From positions 1-64,000 of IMG/VR virus record IMGVR_UViG_3300023060_000001: a stretch of DNA of 64,000 nucleotides. One strand, 5' to 3'. Of this stretch, positions 3,958 through 48,278 are shown one piece after another. The notes below the pieces were generated by a model, which was not told where the DNA came from, did no database searches, and saw only the letters and a list, made by a program, of their open reading frames with translations. The first letter of the stretch is position 1, and every line of letters begins with the position of its first letter. Position numbers and translations under genes: made by a program. Source of the stretch: a virus. Its lineage: Duplodnaviria; Caudoviricetes.

Positions 3958-4245
3958 TCATAAGCTAGTCTCCTTTTTGAATTCATTTTCGTACCAATTG
4001 TACACATCATCTAAATCAAGGTAAATATCTGTAGAAGAATAATCTTCTAAAAATTCTACATTTATACGGACACGCCAACCAGAAAAATGTACAAAGTTTA
4101 ATTGGTAATCCTCCTTTGTCCAACCCCAATTACCGTTAATCAATTCCTCCTTAAAAGAATCCTCTTTAGCAAAGATACATTCAATTAGACAGCGAGTGGT
4201 TGTTTTCATTTGTACAAATTCTTCTGGTGTAATTGACATTTTCAT
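3958..4245 (-). CDS. hypothetical protein
   Basis: 95-aa ORF, ATGA-coupled. Confidence 0.65.
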   Translation of the reverse strand: MKMSITPEEFVQMKTTTRCLIECIFAKEDSFKEELINGNWGWTKEDYQLNFVHFSGWRVRINVEFLEDYSSTDIYLDLDDVYNWYENEFKKETSL

Positions 4246-12871: not shown

Positions 12872-15712
12872 ATGCAAGCAGAGTTTTTAAAAGATAAAAG
12901 TAAGTATACAGACAGAGTACTTCACTCTGACATAGAGGGTCGTGGTTTTCTAGATGTTATAAAATCAGACAAAGATGTTTGGTGTTTAGTATCAAGGGAT
13001 GATGAAACAGATGAAGTATTTATATTTCATGATTACCCTGAGTTTGATAATGCAGAAGTTTTTGACCAAGGAGAGAAACATATCATACCTCCACGGACAG
13101 GGACTCTTTTAGATGGGGTTAGATTTTGGTACTTGGCAGGTAAGAACGGTAGTAAACTTTCGGTACACAACTGCTTCACATACGATAAGCCTTTGGTTGA
13201 AAAGATCTGGCCTAAATGCACAATTGAAGATGATGTGTGGGTAGATACCTTTATACAAAGTAAAATACAGTATTTTGATAGACCTCAGCGTAAAGGTGCT
13301 AAATCTCCGCATGGTTTGTTAAACTACTCTTTGATGGAAGGCAATAAGAAGCCAGAAGTTGAAGACTTTAGTATAATGAATGCTTTCATGTTACATCGTT
13401 GTATCATAGATACAAAAACTCAAAAATTTGCATACAATTATCTCAAGAAAGAAAGAGAGATGTTAAAAAGTAAATTAGGTATTTGTATGGAAGATGCTTA
13501 CACTATGGAGGTGCAGTATACAAAAACATGTCACGAACAAGAACAATATGGTGCAAAGGTTGATGTGCCTCACATTAAAAAATGTGTAGAATATTTAGAT
13601 AAAACAACAGAAGAATTGGCAAGAGATATTACACCTAAGCTACCTCCTACTATAAAAGTTTCTGGAGGTAAAGTATCTCGTGTAGAAATGGCTGGTTTAT
13701 TTGGTTACGACACTTCTAGTATGAAAGATGCTATGGAAATGGTTAAGAAAGATGGGGAAATGGTTTCTCAACCAGTTAAACCTTATTACAAACCTACAAC
13801 CAATTTTCATACTGTTAAAAAAGTTAATCAATACTCAGGTTTTAATATTTCCTATGGGTATAGCCCTAAGTTCACTAAAAAGAATGACTTAACTAAATGG
13901 ATTAAATCTCAACACCCCAAAGGAGATGCTGCAAAAGTAAAAGAGTTATCAGACTTCGTAAAAGAGTGGGAAATCGAGAAAAACATTGAAGAAACTAAAC
14001 TTTTAAATAAAAACACTTGTGACTATTTTGAAGTAGATCCAGAAGATACAGATATTATTGCAGGTGCTCATACTAAAATTAAATTTGTAGAAAGCTCCTT
14101 AACTCAACATGAAGTGGTTAAAGGGTATCTTATTAAGGAAGGTATCAGGTTTGCGGAAGAGTGGAATCTTAAAAAGGATGGTGACGGTCAGATCATAAAA
14201 GCTGATTTTGATACTGAGGTACGATATCCCCCTAAAGCTAGACCAGACCATCAAATGGTGATGAAAATTAAAAAAGGAGATGCCTTAGTAACATCTCCTA
14301 AGTTTGGTGAAAAAGAGTATGACCAGTTAGAATCAGAAGATGGTAAGAATGTAGGTAAGTATAACACTTTGGTACATAGAAGGCGCTATCTTGAGAATTA
14401 TAAGGAGCCAGAAAACAAAGGACTTTTGTCTTATGTTAGAGAAGATGGTAGAGTTGGTGCTGGGGTGAACAACTTTAACACTGCAACGGGTCGCGCATCG
14501 CATAGAATTATAGTAAATTTGCCCGCAGATGGTGCTGTTTTTGGTAAGGAAATGCGTCAATGTGTTGTTGCTGATGAAGGTAAAGAACTTGTAGGTATTG
14601 ACCAAAAATCAAGTCAGCTTTCCATCTGTGCTTTTGTTACCAATAATACCGATTATTATGAGGCAGTAGCAACAGGGGTTGAGTTTGAAAATGATGAAAA
14701 AGGTGAACCTATTTATCATGGATCTAGTGCTCACTGTGTTAACTCAAGATACTTCAACTTAGTAACAAAAGAAGAATGGGAAGAGGCAGTAAGAACACAA
14801 AACCCAGATTTAATACATGATATTGTTCTTAAACGTAAAAAATCTAAAGGTTTGAGTTTTGCCTCACTATTCGGTTGTGGTCCTGCTAAATTAGCATTAA
14901 TGGGGGGTTTTGAAGTTCCAGAAGCCAAAAATAAACTACAAGCTTTCTTGGATAATATGGGTTTATCTGAGGTAATAAAATTTCTAGAAGTATGTAGGGA
15001 AAAGTATAAAAGAGGTAAAGGTTTTTATATCCCAACAGGATTTGGTTATTGGGTTTATTGTGGAGGTGTACATAAATCCACCAACTACCTGATCCAGTCG
15101 CTAGAAGGAGTGGTTCAAAAGAAAGCAGTTGAAATAATGAAACAGATGTTTATAGAAAAAGGTTATTGGGGAAAAAGCGTTAATAAAATACTTGATATGC
15201 ATAAATATTGTGCCTTCTAATCGTAAGGTTAGTCGAATAACTCCGTTAATTACTGGAAACCTTAACTAGGTGTGTTAATATTATCGTGAGATAAGTTTAA
15301 TATGTTTGTAGAAGGTGATCAGAAGCCACACTGTGTTTGCAGTAGGTTCAGAGACTATCGAAAGCGTATGTATCAATGGAAGATACCATATACAGTGAGT
15401 AGAGTAGGGTTCAAGCGAATTCGAAAATGGAGCATCTTAGGTAAGATGATTATATAGTCCGACTCTGTTAGAAATAACAGGAGATGTAGCGAGTCTCATA
15501 AGTAGGTGGATGAAGTATTATTAGAAGTAGATAAAGGTATGGGTGTTGAAGTAGGTAAAATGGCTTGTGAAGCTTATACTCAAGCTGGTGTGGAATTAAA
15601 TAAATGGTATAAAGATAATTTACACTTATATCCTGCAGGGGGTACACCTAAGATTATATGTGATTTTGCAGGTGGTTATGCTGTTGGATCAGATTACGCA
15701 AGTTGCCATTGA
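12872..15712 (+). CDS. polA: family A DNA polymerase; spliced join(12872..15202,15509..15712), 844 aa
   Basis: Exonuclease motifs DIE and HN...YD; TGR; motif A GIDQKSSQL; motif B RKKSKGLSF..LFG; N..IQS; motif C DMH|DE is restored by removing the intron. Confidence 0.93.
15203..15508 (+). mobile_element. ORF-less group I intron (306 nt) in polymerase motif C
   Basis: P1 GCAU/GUGC with U.G at the 5' splice site; P7 elements GUUCAGAGACUA and UAUAGUCC; terminal G; splicing restores HDE in frame. Confidence 0.93.
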
Positions 15713-15725
15713 TAAAGGGGCTTTT

Positions 15726-16379
15726 ATGAAGTACGAAGAAATAGATTGGACTGACTTAAATAAGTACCAGTATATGTTAGAATTACCTAATGAAGTGTGG
15801 GTTGATAGCATTACAATTAATACTTATTTTGTTTGTGACAGTACGATATATCAGGTAAGTAATTATGGTAGATGTAGACATACAGGGAAGTTACGAGGTG
15901 CTACAAATTTTATGTACCCTCCTAAAGTTTTCCGTATAACAGATAATGGCAACGGTTATAAGAAAGTAGCTTTAAATTATAACAGTGCCATAAAAAACTT
16001 CTACCTGCACAGGTTGATAGCAAGTGCCTTCTTACCTAACCCCGACAACAAACCGCAGGTTAATCACAAAACTACAGGTCTAGGTAAGTTTGATAATAGA
16101 GTAGAACATTTAGAATGGTGTACAGAAAAACATAATATAACAGACGCTCATAAAAACGGACAGATGCGCAACCGTAGTGAACTAAATACCACTACAAAGC
16201 ACTCTGACGAGTATATAGCGGATATGTATAGAAGATATAAAGACACAGGTAAGGTTGGAGAAACAGCCAGAGAATTTGGTGTGCCAAGAACTACATTATC
16301 CTCTATAGTTAACAAAAGATCTAGAACAACAGTTACAGATCCTATAGATGTGTACTATGAAACTATAGGTAAACAATAA
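15726..16379 (+). CDS. free-standing NUMOD4-HNH homing endonuclease with C-terminal HTH
   Basis: YQVSNYGR, HRLIASAFLPN, VNHK...DNRVEHLEWCT..N..DA. Confidence 0.88.
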   Translation: MKYEEIDWTDLNKYQYMLELPNEVWVDSITINTYFVCDSTIYQVSNYGRCRHTGKLRGATNFMYPPKVFRITDNGNGYKKVALNYNSAIKNFYLHRLIASAFLPNPDNKPQVNHKTTGLGKFDNRVEHLEWCTEKHNITDAHKNGQMRNRSELNTTTKHSDEYIADMYRRYKDTGKVGETAREFGVPRTTLSSIVNKRSRTTVTDPIDVYYETIGKQ

Positions 16380-29532: not shown

Positions 29533-32500
29533 TTATTTTCCTCTTGCTTGAGTAGCTACTGACTCTTTACCAGCCAAAGCACGTTTAAGTTCATCCATTT
29601 GACCGTTGTTTATTACGATATTATTAGTAACAGTTGTTACGTTACCTTCGGAACTATTCCATAAACCAGATACACCACCGTATTTCATGTTCTCAGCTCC
29701 CTCTACAGGACGGAAAGCATCTGAAAAAGAAGTACCTCTATTTAGAATTCTTCCTATTTCAGCAGACTTACCTTTGTTAGACAGCTTAGCGAATTCTTCA
29801 GGAGATAAAGGCGATTTTTTAGCATTGAACCCTTTAAAACTTGAGTCCTTAGCGTAGAATTTACCGTCCTTTTCTACAAAGTCGCTGGTTGTACCTTTTA
29901 AGAGGTTTATTTGTTTTCCATAAGTTTTCTCTATAAGACCTATTTTAGTATCATCTATCATTGAGTATAACTCGTCAATTGCAACTAATGCTAAACTAAT
30001 AGGTGCAAAAGCCCTAGCCCAAGATGCTGCCATAGACCAACTAGCTTTATGTAAAATAGATTGGAAAGATAGCAAGGTATGTATTGCCTTGGCACCAAGT
30101 AGTGTGTAGAAATTATCTATTGCAAACTTCATAACAGGTTCTAAAACTTTCAACCCCGTAGCAATAGCATTAAACACATCACCAAATATTTTACCTAATT
30201 TCTTAAGTTGGGGTTCTGAATTTTCAAAGATTTCAGATAATGTTCCATAAAGGTTAGATAACCCTTCTTCAAAACCTGAGTTGAAAATAGTTTTGCCAGC
30301 GCGTTGCATTCCAGTCATAAATTGACCTTCTTTAACACGTAATCCTTGTAAGGCTAGTGCATATGCTCCACCTTCTGTAGCAGCTTTTCGGAATTCTTTA
30401 GCCACTTTTGGTAGTACTTCTGCTGAAACTAGTTGACCCGCTTCCATCATTTTGAATAGTTCTGCTTCAGTGATTCCTAAAGCCCTAGTGAATATTTGCA
30501 CAGCACCCTTAGTGCAATCAACAACTTACGTAACCAAGTTGCCAGTTATTACCTTCAACCAAATAATAACTTACACACCTCTCGGTGTGGGTAGATCATA
30601 TCTTATACTACAGCATCACCTGTTTAGCATCCTCCCGTTTCGATTAGCCATTAACTTGCTAACCTACTCTACTCCCTTCCACCAAAAAGGTGTGGTTTCG
30701 ATGACCGTTGATCGTTCTTCTCTTTTAAAGAAGCTTCGATGCTGATTGCCAATATTATTAAGATTTTCAGGGGTCGTTACTACATTTCTGTGTAATATCC
30801 TACTTAATACTTAACTTGGGTTTCCAGCAGTTAAAGAGGTTTATTCATCATTGATTTCTCAATGAGTACCCAGTGTTACTTAGGTAAACTGTCGCCTAGC
30901 TGATTTTTGAGTTCCTCCAGTAAAGCTAATAAAATCAATAACTTAGCTAAACACCTACACCTTCTCAGGGTAGCCTGATCATATCATAACCCTCGCCACT
31001 CTACGTTAGGGTTCCTGCTGTTTCTTCCTATAAATAGGTTCTACTATACTCGCTTACCAAAACTAATCTTTGCTAGTTTATCTGCTTTCTATGATCGATG
31101 AACGTGAAGCTACTTACTTTGTAGCTTATTCGCTGCTGATTGTCAATATTTTCAGAATTTTAAGGGGTCGCTACTATGTCACCATGTAGTATCCTATCTG
31201 AAACCTAACTTGAGTTTCCAGCAATTAAACAGGTTTTCGATAATAATTTCTTATTAAAGGGCCAAAGAACTTTTAGCCATTACTTTCCCTTTTGACATCC
31301 AACACCTTCGAACAAGTACGTTACCTCTTGCCCCGCAAATCCTTATTGCAGCTCTATATCGCTATAGAAGTTGAGACCATATCTTCACCCTCAGCCTTAC
31401 CTGTTTGGGGTTGTGCGCTTCCACTCACTTGAGTGTACAGATTTCATAAACCTCTAAGGTTCGTTTATCTTGGTCGTTACACCTTGGAAAGAATTACTTC
31501 TAACCCTTGGCTCGGTATTGTCTCTCGGAATAATTTATGATTTTGTTAAGATGTTCTATTTTTAGAATTGCCTTTTGAATCATTTCATCAGGTGTAGAAT
31601 CAAACTTAAAACTATTACAATCCTTACAGGAAAATGTAATGTTTTCGACTGTATTAGAACCGCCTCTAGAAATAGGGTTTATATGCTCAACTTCACATGT
31701 AGTATGGTTGATTGCGTCACCGCAATAAGCGCATGATTTATTGGAACTTTCAAATAAAGCTTTTAATTCTTTACCTGTTACAACACCTATACCCATGTGT
31801 TTTGTTCTTGCATTAGGTTTCGATGCTCTTGCATTCCAATAAACCACAGTTCCCGTTATAGCGTTACGCTCAAACCACACCCTATATTTTTCTTTGTTGT
31901 CATAAGTTTTATTTCGAATTCTAACACATTGCTTGCATTCTTTTCTGACTCCGTTTTTACCCTTCTTTTCTTTATGAAAGGAAGTTAAAGGCAATTCTTC
32001 GTTGCATTTAGAACATATTTGTTTAATCATATTATCACTCTTTTCGGTATTGTATATATTAATTATACCAAATAACAGTGTTATTTACAAGAGAGTTCCA
32101 CCGAATTCACACAATTTGTTCATGCCTATTACTAAGCAGCCAGACAATAATCGTCTATCTGGATCAAGGCTTTCTGACTTCGCTTGATGCTTTCATCATC
32201 TACCTTCAATGCTGTCCCGAACATACTCAACCCTGTGAATAAGTCCTCTTGTTCCGTTTGGGAAATTTTACCTTTTGATGCAAATTTAAACTTAACGAAA
32301 GCGTCTGTAGTATCTTTTAAACTAAGACCCATTTCATCAACAATTCCATTTATGAACATCATATCCTTTGCAGCAGCTTCCGAACTACCACTTGCAGCAA
32401 GCATAGAAGCCTCCATCCCCTGAAAACTCATGCCTACCCGCTTAATTGCACCCGTACCTTCAAAAATAGCGTACAAGCTTGCATAGCTGCGAATCATATT

Positions 32501-45672: not shown

Positions 45673-48278
45673 TTACGCCGCATTTTCATTGTTAACATCT
45701 GAGTTATCTTGTGAATTACCCCCAGATCCTGATGTACCACCATTATCTTCTCCTTGCTTATCCTGTATGTCGAAAAGCATCTCTCTTAACTCTTCTACAG
45801 GTGTATCAATTGGAACACGGTAATCAACGTCCATCATATCGAGAACATAGTTTATAACGTCTGGATGTGCTGGAAGTATACTCTTTGTACGTGAAACAAG
45901 CTTACCTGCCTCATCAGCAGAAATCTTCTGAACATTACCCGCTTTCCACTTAGGCATGTCCGAAGCTTTATAATCCCAGTTGTTAAGTTTCATCAACTTA
46001 GGGAAAATCTGCTTATTCCACATATCATCTATGATCATAGTATCTAGTTCAACAAAGTGTGCTTGGATGGAAGATTGACCTTCTAAAAGGTTGTAACTTC
46101 CGCCACCGTTTTCACCTGACAACATATTCTGACATGCGAAACAGTTGTAGATTGCACGTTTACGTTGCTCAACTAATTCTACTATATCGAAATTTTTACC
46201 CTTAGATCTTCAATAACTGACGCAACTCAATTACCCGTCTTTTTAAGACTGCTCTATATCTCTATAGAAGTTGGGACTATATCTTCACCCTATTTCATAG
46301 GGGCTTACCATTTCCACAACCATCAGCTTGTTGTGTACTCCCTTTCGGGATAGTCTCTGAAGGTTTAACTACAAATTAAAAATAAAGATCGGAAATATCT
46401 TTGTAAGAAGTTTTCCTTCTTATATTTTTAATTAAAATTTTGTTTACTTTATCACTTTCTAAGGAAGATATTATTTCAGAAGAAGATTTACCTTCTGAAA
46501 TTAGCTTGCAAACTTCGTGAAGAATATCGTCAGGAACTTTCCTTCTTTCAAATTTCTTCATATTATACTGAGAAGTTATTTCAACCCTCTGCTTACCTGC
46601 TTTAATATTCTTCACGTAACCCTTAGAGATATCATACTTATTAGCTACATCTACATTTCTCATACCTTCTTGAAGGTCTTTACATATAGAGTGCATGGTT
46701 TCGTCTGGTATAGTAGATAGGTTTGAATCTTCCCCAAAAACTCCGTTAAATACTAGTCTGCCGTTAATAGCAGCCTGTTTAGAGTTATGAGAATAAGTAC
46801 ACCATTCTAGGTTATCCACATCATTGTTAAGTTTATCATGGTCTATGTGGTTTATTACAGGAAGATTATCTGGATTGGTTAACCAAATAAAACCTACTAA
46901 CCTATGGACTAAAACTATCTTATTAGTGGTAGTGTTTCTAAAGGCTTTGTACCCATGTGTTCCTATGTGAACTTTAACTATCTTACCTGTTTCAAGGTTT
47001 TTAATAAAAGACCCATCTCTATTGCAAGCGTAAGGGTATTGTTCTTCATTAGTTCTTAAAGTATTCAAAATTTTTCCTCTTTAGTTGTTCACCAGAGGAA
47101 GAGTAGTTACTTCCCTGCTGATTGTCTCTATGTTGATTATTTTTACAGGTCGCCATCATATCACTATATGGTATTGTAAATCAACCCTTGCGAGAGTTCC
47201 CAGCAATTAAATAAGTACTTTGCATATATTACTATATACAGAGGCAGTGTAATTTACCTCCTTCAATCCCTAAGAATTGAAGTTTAAACTGTGCAGCACC
47301 AGAACCATTTTCAGAATGCGTATCTGTTGGAAGAACGCAATAACTTTGATCACCAGCATGTAAGTTAGCAAGGTTATCTTTTAATTGTTCAACCATTCGA
47401 GCTTCTGGTCCAGTTGGATTATCAGATGCCGCAGCTAACAATGAACTTGGAGCACCAAGAACAGGCATACCAGCCATATCCTTCTGAACACCAATCAATG
47501 TTAAATCTTGTAAAAGTTGTTTTTCTTTCCAAGGGATGTAAGCTGAATCAAATACTGAAATGCCAGCAGGTTGTGTTGGAGTAGATGAATATGAACAATA
47601 AGCCACTCGGTTAAATGGTATAGTTTGTACGCCAGAGTTCCCCTTGAATCCATTGAATCCTATTGAACGAACACCATCCACACCTTCAAAAGCGGATTGC
47701 GATTGATTCAAAGAGGTTATTCTATCTCCCTTAGGTGTAGTTGCCCAAGGAGTGATCTTATCTAAAGTGAGAGGATGAATATAAGCAAGTTTTTTAAGCT
47801 TCCATTTATCATTCCATTCTGCATCACCATTTTCAAACACCATCTCAAAAGGAGACCATCCATCACGGATCATTGCAGCAGAGCACATACCTACTACTAA
47901 AGGAGTTTGTCCAAATAGGTTTTCCATGTTATATTCAAGGAACTCTTTGATGCGAAGTGATTCTTCCGAGTTTACATCATATTTGAATTTACCTTTAGCT
48001 TGAGCTTTTGCAACAGCCATACTTCTTGCAGAAAAACAAGTAGCGATTGCATCATCGTTTAACATTTGTTGGTAAGTGGTTAGTCGTTGCGTTCGACTGA
48101 GTTCCCAAGGTTTAAGGATATCAATTTGACGCTTGACAAACTCTATTGCTGCAGTGGATAATTGTTTATTAGCGGAACGTTGTTCCCTTGTGGTGCTAGG
48201 AGGGGAATTATCACTTTTCGCCATTCTAGTGTTTGCGTAGGATTGTTTCTTTCTACTACGCCTACTCTTTTTAGCCAT
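45673..48278 (-). CDS. portal protein; spliced exons 48278-47256 and 46200-45673 (516 aa)
   Basis: Between terminase and protease; the splice gives FLGIEGG|GKNFDIVELVEQRKRAI...GSYNL.EGQ. Confidence 0.9.
46201..47255 (-). mobile_element. group I intron in the portal gene (1055 nt, encodes HNH)
   Basis: P1 GAGGU/GCCUC; P7 elements CAGAGACUA and AAGAUAUAGUCC; terminal G. Confidence 0.92.
46376..47068 (-). CDS. intron-encoded HNH endonuclease with HTH repeats
   Basis: VHRLV...NP.NLP.INHIDHDKLNN.V.NLEWCT..HN. Confidence 0.9.
   Translation of the reverse strand: MNTLRTNEEQYPYACNRDGSFIKNLETGKIVKVHIGTHGYKAFRNTTTNKIVLVHRLVGFIWLTNPDNLPVINHIDHDKLNNDVDNLEWCTYSHNSKQAAINGRLVFNGVFGEDSNLSTIPDETMHSICKDLQEGMRNVDVANKYDISKGYVKNIKAGKQRVEITSQYNMKKFERRKVPDDILHEVCKLISEGKSSSEIISSLESDKVNKILIKNIRRKTSYKDISDLYF

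Follow-up and report, generated by a model that had tools for sequence, protein, structure and literature searches.

How is one tape measure protein made from a phage gene that lies as two large open reading frames (ORFs) 1.6 kilobases (kb) apart? The question is raised by a stretch of 64,000 nucleotides (nt), hereafter the window, which comprises positions 1 to 64,000 of the IMG/VR record IMGVR_UViG_3300023060_000001. This record, which belongs to a viral metagenome collection and does not derive from a cultured phage, is 129,542 base pairs (bp) long (~129.5 kb), carries direct terminal repeats, is rated 100% complete and represents a marine phage that is kin to Pseudoalteromonas phage J2-1. 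The tape measure gene is encoded on the minus strand, and coordinates are those of the window unless another genome is named. In all probability three self-splicing group I introns are inserted within 66 nt of the coding stretch that is most conserved in this gene, and they would be selfish elements accumulated at a hot spot. This answer rests on the anatomy and homology of the locus, on covariation, on alleles with empty sites and on purifying selection acting on the small exons, all of which were observed here.

Four exons probably encode one tape measure protein

When the three inserts are removed, the four exons (Table 1) join into 2130 nt with a single open frame, which encodes 709 amino acids (aa). 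A sequence-only reading of the window had proposed these junctions, the 25- and 36-nt exons between them and the restored frame, and the 709-aa ORF does contain the peptide that it predicted. Of the outer limits it had given, 30508 coincides exactly with the last base of intron 3 and 32156 with the first base of intron 1. Independently of that reading, our own spliced aligner, supplied with a profile of intron-less tape measure proteins and with the rule of a U before the intron and a G at its end, returned the identical three sites and the same two small exons. Unspliced RNA would encode a truncated 372-aa protein, as had also been stated (ORF 33250-32132), and a second ORF of 322 aa that starts from a GTG (30501-29533).

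The 709-aa product aligns without a gap over all three junctions with the uninterrupted tape measure proteins of Pseudoalteromonas phage J2-1_QLiu-2017, Alteromonas phage PT11-V22 and Rheinheimera phage Barba1A. This comparison with intron-less relatives had been suggested as a check of the junctions, and it bears them out in all three phages. In the Pfam profile PF20155 (TMP_3), exon 1 covers positions 4-99 and exon 4 covers positions 121-162, and each half alone stays below the whole-protein cut-off. The 21 TMP_3 positions that are absent between the halves equal the 21 residues of exons 2 and 3. The tape measure PHROG families 5255, 25927 and 7817 are matched as well. The matches are colinear for PHROG 5255 (88-414 from exon 1 and 457-695 from exon 4) and for PHROG 7817 (6-406 from exon 1 and 431-740 from exon 4). 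In addition, exon 1 shares 97% aa identity with the N-terminal tape measure coding sequence (CDS) of J2-1, and exon 4 matches tape measure genes in 380 phage records by tblastn. The gene sits between tail chaperone and baseplate genes, in synteny with the tail modules of J2-1/SL20, H101, PH357 and ICP1. Insertion sites (+2, +27, +63 and the like) are numbered in nt from the end of the Gln codon of exon 1, and the coordinates of guides, P7 and P10 were counted by hand from sequence rulers.

Ribozyme signatures of the three introns

All three inserts are matched by the Rfam covariance model RF00028, which has a gathering score of 50 bits, in a search space of 2.1 kb. Intron 2 scores 64.2 bits (E 1.9e-15), above the gathering score. 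The 3' core of intron 1 reaches 32.6 bits (E 5.3e-6) and stays below it because an ORF insert splits the match; J2-1 carries an orthologue of intron 1 that lacks the ORF, and this copy scores 50.8 bits. In each of the three introns the 5' exon ends with a U opposite a G in P1, the terminal intron base is a G, and the P7 halves pair either perfectly or with one G.U. The P7 pairs show exchanges of U-A and C-G between the introns. With these features the sequence-only claim that three group I introns follow one another in a tape measure gene is well supported.

The pairings at the splice sites were read by eye. P1 has six pairs that close on the U.G in intron 1, four exon pairs plus three intron pairs in intron 2, and five pairs in intron 3. 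P10 has three, six and four pairs in introns 1, 2 and 3, respectively. Past the 5' splice sites an in-frame stop is found, also by eye, after 8, 6 and 1 codons in introns 1, 2 and 3, so that ribosomes on unspliced RNA would stop before they reach a ribozyme core.

Covariation supports the predicted fold

The family of introns 2 and 3 was aligned by sequence alone, with 11 introns from the window, J2-1, H101, PH357, ICP1 and five uncultured contigs. From this alignment RNAalifold returns P1, P3, P4, P5 (extensions included), P6 and P8, and the P7 pseudoknot was added to the structure prior to the counting of pairs. Standard pairs occupy 93.8% of the cells, compared with 33-48% in controls with the pairing partner slid one to three columns along. 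Changes on both sides are seen in 36 of the 52 pairs, compared with 6-11 in the slid controls, and none of 500 shuffles matches the observed pairing or covariation score. P3, P4, P5, P6, P7 and P8 are each backed by such both-sided changes. Within the P7 pseudoknot, U-A pairs are exchanged for C-G and C-G pairs for U-A. The U.G at the splice site is kept in all 11 introns, and the remaining P1 pairs co-vary with the exon sequence at +27, +51 and +63.

Empty sites and selection on the small exons

A megablast search found three cultured Pseudoalteromonas phages, J2-1, H101 and PH357, whose gene is interrupted in the same stretch. PH357 carries a single intron, at the second site of the window. 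Its coding DNA is continuous over sites 1 and 3 and reads there as the predicted ligated junctions, with exon 3 contiguous with exon 4; junctions 1 and 3 are therefore fixed. The empty allele of junction 2 is provided by many relatives that are continuous there. Intron 2 shares 96.6% identity with the J2-1 intron at its site and 82-83% with the introns of H101 and PH357. In a search of three loci, Rfam did not report the PH357 intron despite its 82% identity to window intron 2 (megablast/blastn), which we take as a filter effect. For intron 3, orthologues with 96% identity are present at the same site in the uncultured contigs L017 and L018, where the flanking exons are intact.

Over the 63-nt stretch from the Gln codon to exon 4, the window is separated from J2-1, L017, the further contig L019 and H101 by 2, 8, 7 and 9 nt differences, respectively, and by no aa change. 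One of these differences is a switch between two serine codon families. J2-1 and H101 also have exon 2, in which all changes are synonymous. Purely synonymous change in the small exons is hard to explain otherwise than by their translation in this frame, which requires splicing. To this can be added that the cultured phages J2-1, H101 and PH357 are viable with introns orthologous to intron 1 and/or intron 2 in this essential gene.

Table 1. Exons, introns and related features of the tape measure locus, with the insertion sites occupied in the window and in its relatives
Feature	Position	Strand	Remarks
Exon 1, tape measure	33250-32157	minus	364 codons + 2 nt; last six bases are the exon strand of intron 1 P1
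Intron 1, group I	32156-31300	minus	857 nt; site +2 (2 nt past the Gln codon); contains HNH ORF
Exon 2	31299-31275	minus	25 nt; finishes a Met codon and encodes eight more residues
Intron 2, group I	31274-30918	minus	357 nt; site +27; without ORF
Exon 3	30917-30882	minus	36 nt; 12 codons
Intron 3, group I	30881-30508	minus	374 nt; site +63; without ORF
Exon 4, tape measure	30507-29533	minus	324 codons + stop
HNH endonuclease ORF in intron 1	32030-31500	minus	176 aa
Promoter-like site, extended -10	32062-32090	minus	inside intron 1, some 30 nt upstream of the HNH start codon
Intron 1 elements	guide 32145-32140; P7 halves 31475-31471, 31379-31375	minus	P2 with GNRA loop after the guide
Intron 2 elements	guide/P10 region 31269-31260; P7 halves 31096-31092, 30981-30977	minus	
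Intron 3 elements	guide 30871-30867; P10 partner 30875-30872; P7 halves 30706-30702, 30598-30594	minus	
Sites occupied, window	+2, +27, +63		
Sites occupied, J2-1	+2, +27, +66		
Sites occupied, L017	+2, +35, +63		
Sites occupied, H101	+2, +27, +35, +46, +66		
Five introns of H101 (L002, NC_029094; coordinates of that locus)	4131-3847, 3821-3495, 3486-3125, 3113-2709, 2688-1642	minus	last with HNH_3 ORF

Origin of introns 1 and 3

The J2-1 counterpart of intron 1 is 294 nt long and lacks an ORF. It is 93% identical to the window over nt 1-74 of intron 1 and 99.5% identical over the last 219 nt. The match at both ends identifies window intron 1, at the level of sequence, as the J2-1-type ORF-less intron plus a 563-nt endonuclease cassette. 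The ORF-less copies and the Rfam alignment place the insertion point in or adjoining the hairpin loop of P5, and the last codons of the ORF enter the ribozyme core. In the orthologous introns of J2-1, L017, L019 and H101 the 563-nt cassette is missing. Thus far the comparison points to a history in which an ORF-less intron would have gained an HNH homing endonuclease cassette in its P5 region.

The product of the ORF matches HNH_5 (3.7e-12) and HNH (7e-11) in Pfam and PHROG 1035 (7e-28). The protein would act as an endonuclease and drive homing. The HNH ORFs in the introns of the relatives are of the HNH_3 type; that of the window is of another type and unrelated to them in sequence. One such case is found in the orthologues of intron 2 in L019 and the contig L020, which carry an insert of ~580 nt that encodes an HNH_3 ORF in L019. 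The window cassette possibly brings its own promoter, since a promoter-like site with 10 of 12 consensus matches and a TG before the -10 element lies upstream of the ORF and is the sole minus-strand match in 3 kb. The overall number of promoter-like matches does not exceed that in shuffles, and the site is to be read as a consensus match only.

Introns 2 and 3 are 79% identical over a 108-nt core and differ in their guides. By this measure intron 3 is a paralogue of intron 2. It would have diverged from an intron-2-type copy whose guide was retargeted 36 nt downstream.

A hot spot for intron insertion

An alignment query in IMG/VR returned 80 related loci (L016-L095), of which 40 could be scored. 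In 22 of these 40 the tape measure gene is interrupted within one 75-nt stretch. The spliced aligner places the insertions at nine sites (-9, +2, +9, +27, +35, +46, +51, +63 and +66), which in the divergent loci are protein-guided predictions. The number of introns varies among the relatives (0, 1, 2, 3 or 5), as do their positions (Table 1). The densest array is that of H101, with predicted small exons of 25, 8, 11 and 20 nt, and five Rfam matches (80.3 to 30.3 bits) agree with the predicted intron positions.

On balance, the 75-nt stretch, which encodes the most conserved motif of the family, appears to receive group I introns with exceptional density, at no fewer than nine sites. Introns would shift there by change of the guide alone, and endonuclease cassettes would come and go independently. 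If such arrays, of which that of H101 is the longest, are spliced accurately in vivo, they would set a lower bound on the exon length that a group I ribozyme needs and offer a natural system for the order of, and the interference between, adjacent ribozymes. With the window, J2-1, L017, PH357 and H101, occupied and empty alleles are at hand for each site, a set suited to the study of homing, retargeting and micro-exon limits.

Two further loci show changes in the same motif. The close relative L017 has no intron at +27, and the U before that splice site is lost (2927-2959 and 4101-4128 of the contig); an HNH_3-bearing intron is found instead at +35, 8 nt further on. The target site may have changed once the intron was gone, or the locus may resist homing; the pattern fits either. 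In the Vibrio splendidus phage 1.187.O (L007, positions 1200-2560), the tape measure gene is split in the same motif by a single intron with an HNH ORF. The record of this Vibrio phage labels the parts as 'coil containing protein', HNH nuclease and hypothetical protein. A three-intron call that the aligner made for it was dropped, because the resulting peptide was implausible and the other evidence shows the single ORF-bearing intron.

Expression of the split gene and alternative explanations

We propose that the pre-mRNA would fold into three ribozymes, each of which would find its own 5' exon via a short P1 with the U.G. Each intron would be freed after its terminal G, the following exon being aligned through P10. 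Three independent splicing events would then turn the four exons into the mRNA for the 709-aa tape measure protein. On RNA that has escaped splicing, the first stop would give the 372-aa product. The array would be tolerated as an accumulation of selfish elements because splicing is accurate, a reading that we prefer to one in which the array is a regulatory device.

Several points weigh against this proposal. Splicing itself is very likely and is judged from DNA. Intron 3 scores 47.9 bits with RF00028 (E 1.4e-10), ~2 bits below the gathering score, and none of the cultured phages J2-1, H101 and PH357 carries a counterpart of it, its orthologues being found only in uncultured contigs. For the P1, P2 and P10 pairings of intron 1 and for the in-frame stops we relied on inspection by eye and not on computation, and the P10 of this intron is weak with only three pairs. 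The assignment of the introns to subgroup IA, which is suggested by large P7-P3 inserts in the Rfam alignments, is likewise indirect.

The gene could instead have been broken by the invasion of endonuclease genes and never be spliced, the 372-aa and 322-aa polypeptides assembling non-covalently. Both large ORFs do exist, and GenBank gives separate CDSs for J2-1, H101 and PH357, none of them annotated as spliced. The GTG at 30501 has a purine-rich stretch a few bases before it, where intron 3 ends (30501-30515, minus strand), and translation of the C-terminal half from unspliced RNA at this GTG is possible. However, this explanation leaves it unaccounted for that the 25- and 36-nt pieces encode exactly the 21 missing residues and have undergone synonymous change only. 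Three covarying ribozyme cores, guides that match the exons and the empty-site alleles are not explained by it either, and the homologous gene of ICP1 is spliced (PMC10448857). We regard it as barely credible. A defect confined to one intron, likeliest intron 3, would have a different cause: the intron would have decayed and lost splicing, and the genome would be a defective variant or an assembly chimera. The score of intron 3 (47.9 vs 50 bits), several non-standard pairs in its Rfam alignment and the metagenomic, uncultured origin of the record would fit such a case. The direct terminal repeats and the completeness of the record speak against it, as do the two contigs with a 96% identical intron at the same site between intact exons. 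Besides, intron 3 agrees in P1, P3, P4-P6, P7 and P8 with the structure that covaries across its family, and its guide and its four-pair P10 match its own exons. The mismatches in the Rfam alignment of P2 mean that P2 is longer than that of the model, not that it is broken. Decay of one intron is thus highly improbable.

It is also conceivable that the introns splice and that the array is functional in addition, in that the amount or kind of tape measure protein is set by skipped exons, by splicing that is slow or ordered, or by the 372-aa product. The sequence-only reading had leaned this way, with alternative splicing tuning the dose of tape measure protein. A precedent exists in phage Twort, where exon skipping among three similar group I introns was described (Landthaler and Shub 1999, as reported in the available part of PMC3073962). 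The 79% identical core of introns 2 and 3 could permit cross-use of splice sites, and the frame arithmetic behind the proposal is right: a skip of 36 nt stays in frame and a skip of 25 nt shifts it. Yet a skip of exon 3 would cost the most conserved motif 12 of its residues, and the guide of the intron 2 P10 pairs with 6 nt of exon 3 and only ~2 nt of exon 4 (by eye). The variation of intron number and sites among the relatives argues against a conserved regulatory design. We found nothing that supports the tuning of dose, and a function of the array appears very unlikely. An intein or a programmed frameshift was rejected as well, as neither can explain why there are three inserts that resemble ribozymes and have stops in every frame.

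Three self-splicing group I introns that accumulated as selfish elements are thus our preferred explanation of the locus, and it has a consequence for annotation. In public records this gene and those of J2-1, H101 and PH357 are entered as a truncated tape measure protein and a hypothetical protein, and the correct product of the gene in the window would be one 709-aa protein.

Comparison with known systems

The sequence-only reading knew of no such case in a tape measure gene, and on this point it is contradicted by the literature (PMC2504315, 2008; PMC10448857, 2023). Barth et al. (2023) showed by RNA-seq, reverse-transcription PCR and Sanger sequencing that the tape measure transcript of the related Vibrio phage ICP1 comprises four exons together with three introns (PMC10448857). 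They also reported that tape measure genes are frequently interrupted and that the ICP1 endonuclease gene resides in different introns depending on the isolate (PMC10448857). A triple-intron tape measure gene is therefore already known from ICP1, and the window is a new example of a known arrangement.

The two loci are alike in many respects. The genes are homologous and share the order of chaperone, tape measure, endolysin and baseplate hub. Both hold three introns in the same conserved motif, one of them with an HNH endonuclease gene, and Rfam detects all three group I introns in the ICP1 gene. The first intron of ICP1 resembles window intron 2: it is inserted at the same site, +27, its core is 83% identical over 111 nt, and it scores 77.9 bits with Rfam. 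In contrast, the ICP1 sites are +27, +35 and +51 with exons of 8 and 16 nt by our own mapping, in which the third acceptor was placed by reading the sequence, as ICP1 has extra residues downstream; the corresponding values in the window are +2, +27 and +63 with exons of 25 and 36 nt. The ICP1 endonuclease is of the HNH_3 type and lies in the middle intron, whereas that of the window is of the HNH_5/HNH type and lies in the first. Splicing is experimentally established in ICP1 and is deduced in the window. The window is a further, well-supported instance of a pattern that was first demonstrated in ICP1, and it does not represent a new kind of mechanism. In this pattern related group I introns repeatedly invade the same tape measure motif at different nucleotides, and the endonuclease genes move independently.

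A similar situation was described by Tourasse and Kolsto (2008) in prophages of the Bacillus cereus group, where group I introns occur at three tape measure sites (PMC2504315); what follows relates to the portion of that source available. The introns IVS1-IVS3 (IA1/IA2) resemble those of the window in occupying three sites of a tape measure gene. Two of them, 80% identical and inserted at different sites with a retargeted P1, parallel window introns 2 and 3. Unlike the window, the hosts of these introns are Gram-positive siphovirus prophages with tape measure proteins of >1200 aa, and in the strains named no more than two of these sites carry an intron. The figure leaves out the central part of the gene between the sites, which indicates that not all of these introns leave micro-exons. 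The Twort case, orf142 of a Staphylococcus phage, differs from the window in both gene and phage family, as far as the available parts of PMC3073962 and PMC11878797 describe it.

Closer at hand, J2-1/SL20 has introns 1 (93-99%) and 2 (96.6%) in common with the window. Its third intron is different, as it is inserted at +66, 3 nt further downstream, and carries an HNH_3 ORF, and its first intron is ORF-less. H101 with five introns and PH357 with one are interrupted in the same stretch and differ from the window in intron number. A literature search retrieved no paper on the introns of the Pseudoalteromonas phages J2-1, H101 and PH357.

Other group I introns of the phage

The phage genome contains at least seven group I introns. 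A Mu-like portal gene at 45673-48278 on the minus strand of the window is split into the ORFs 48278-47232 and 46125-45673. Its intron holds an HNH_3 ORF (47068-46376), and Rfam reports group I matches at 47261-47011 and 46445-46252. On the plus strand, a group I match of 52.3 bits (15193-15481) lies at the end of the ORF for a family A DNA polymerase (12872-15220), and downstream of this ORF a 239-aa ORF with a helix-turn-helix match is found at 15660-16379. The strongest group I match of the genome, with 91.3 bits, is located on the plus strand beyond the window, at genome positions 88322-88542.

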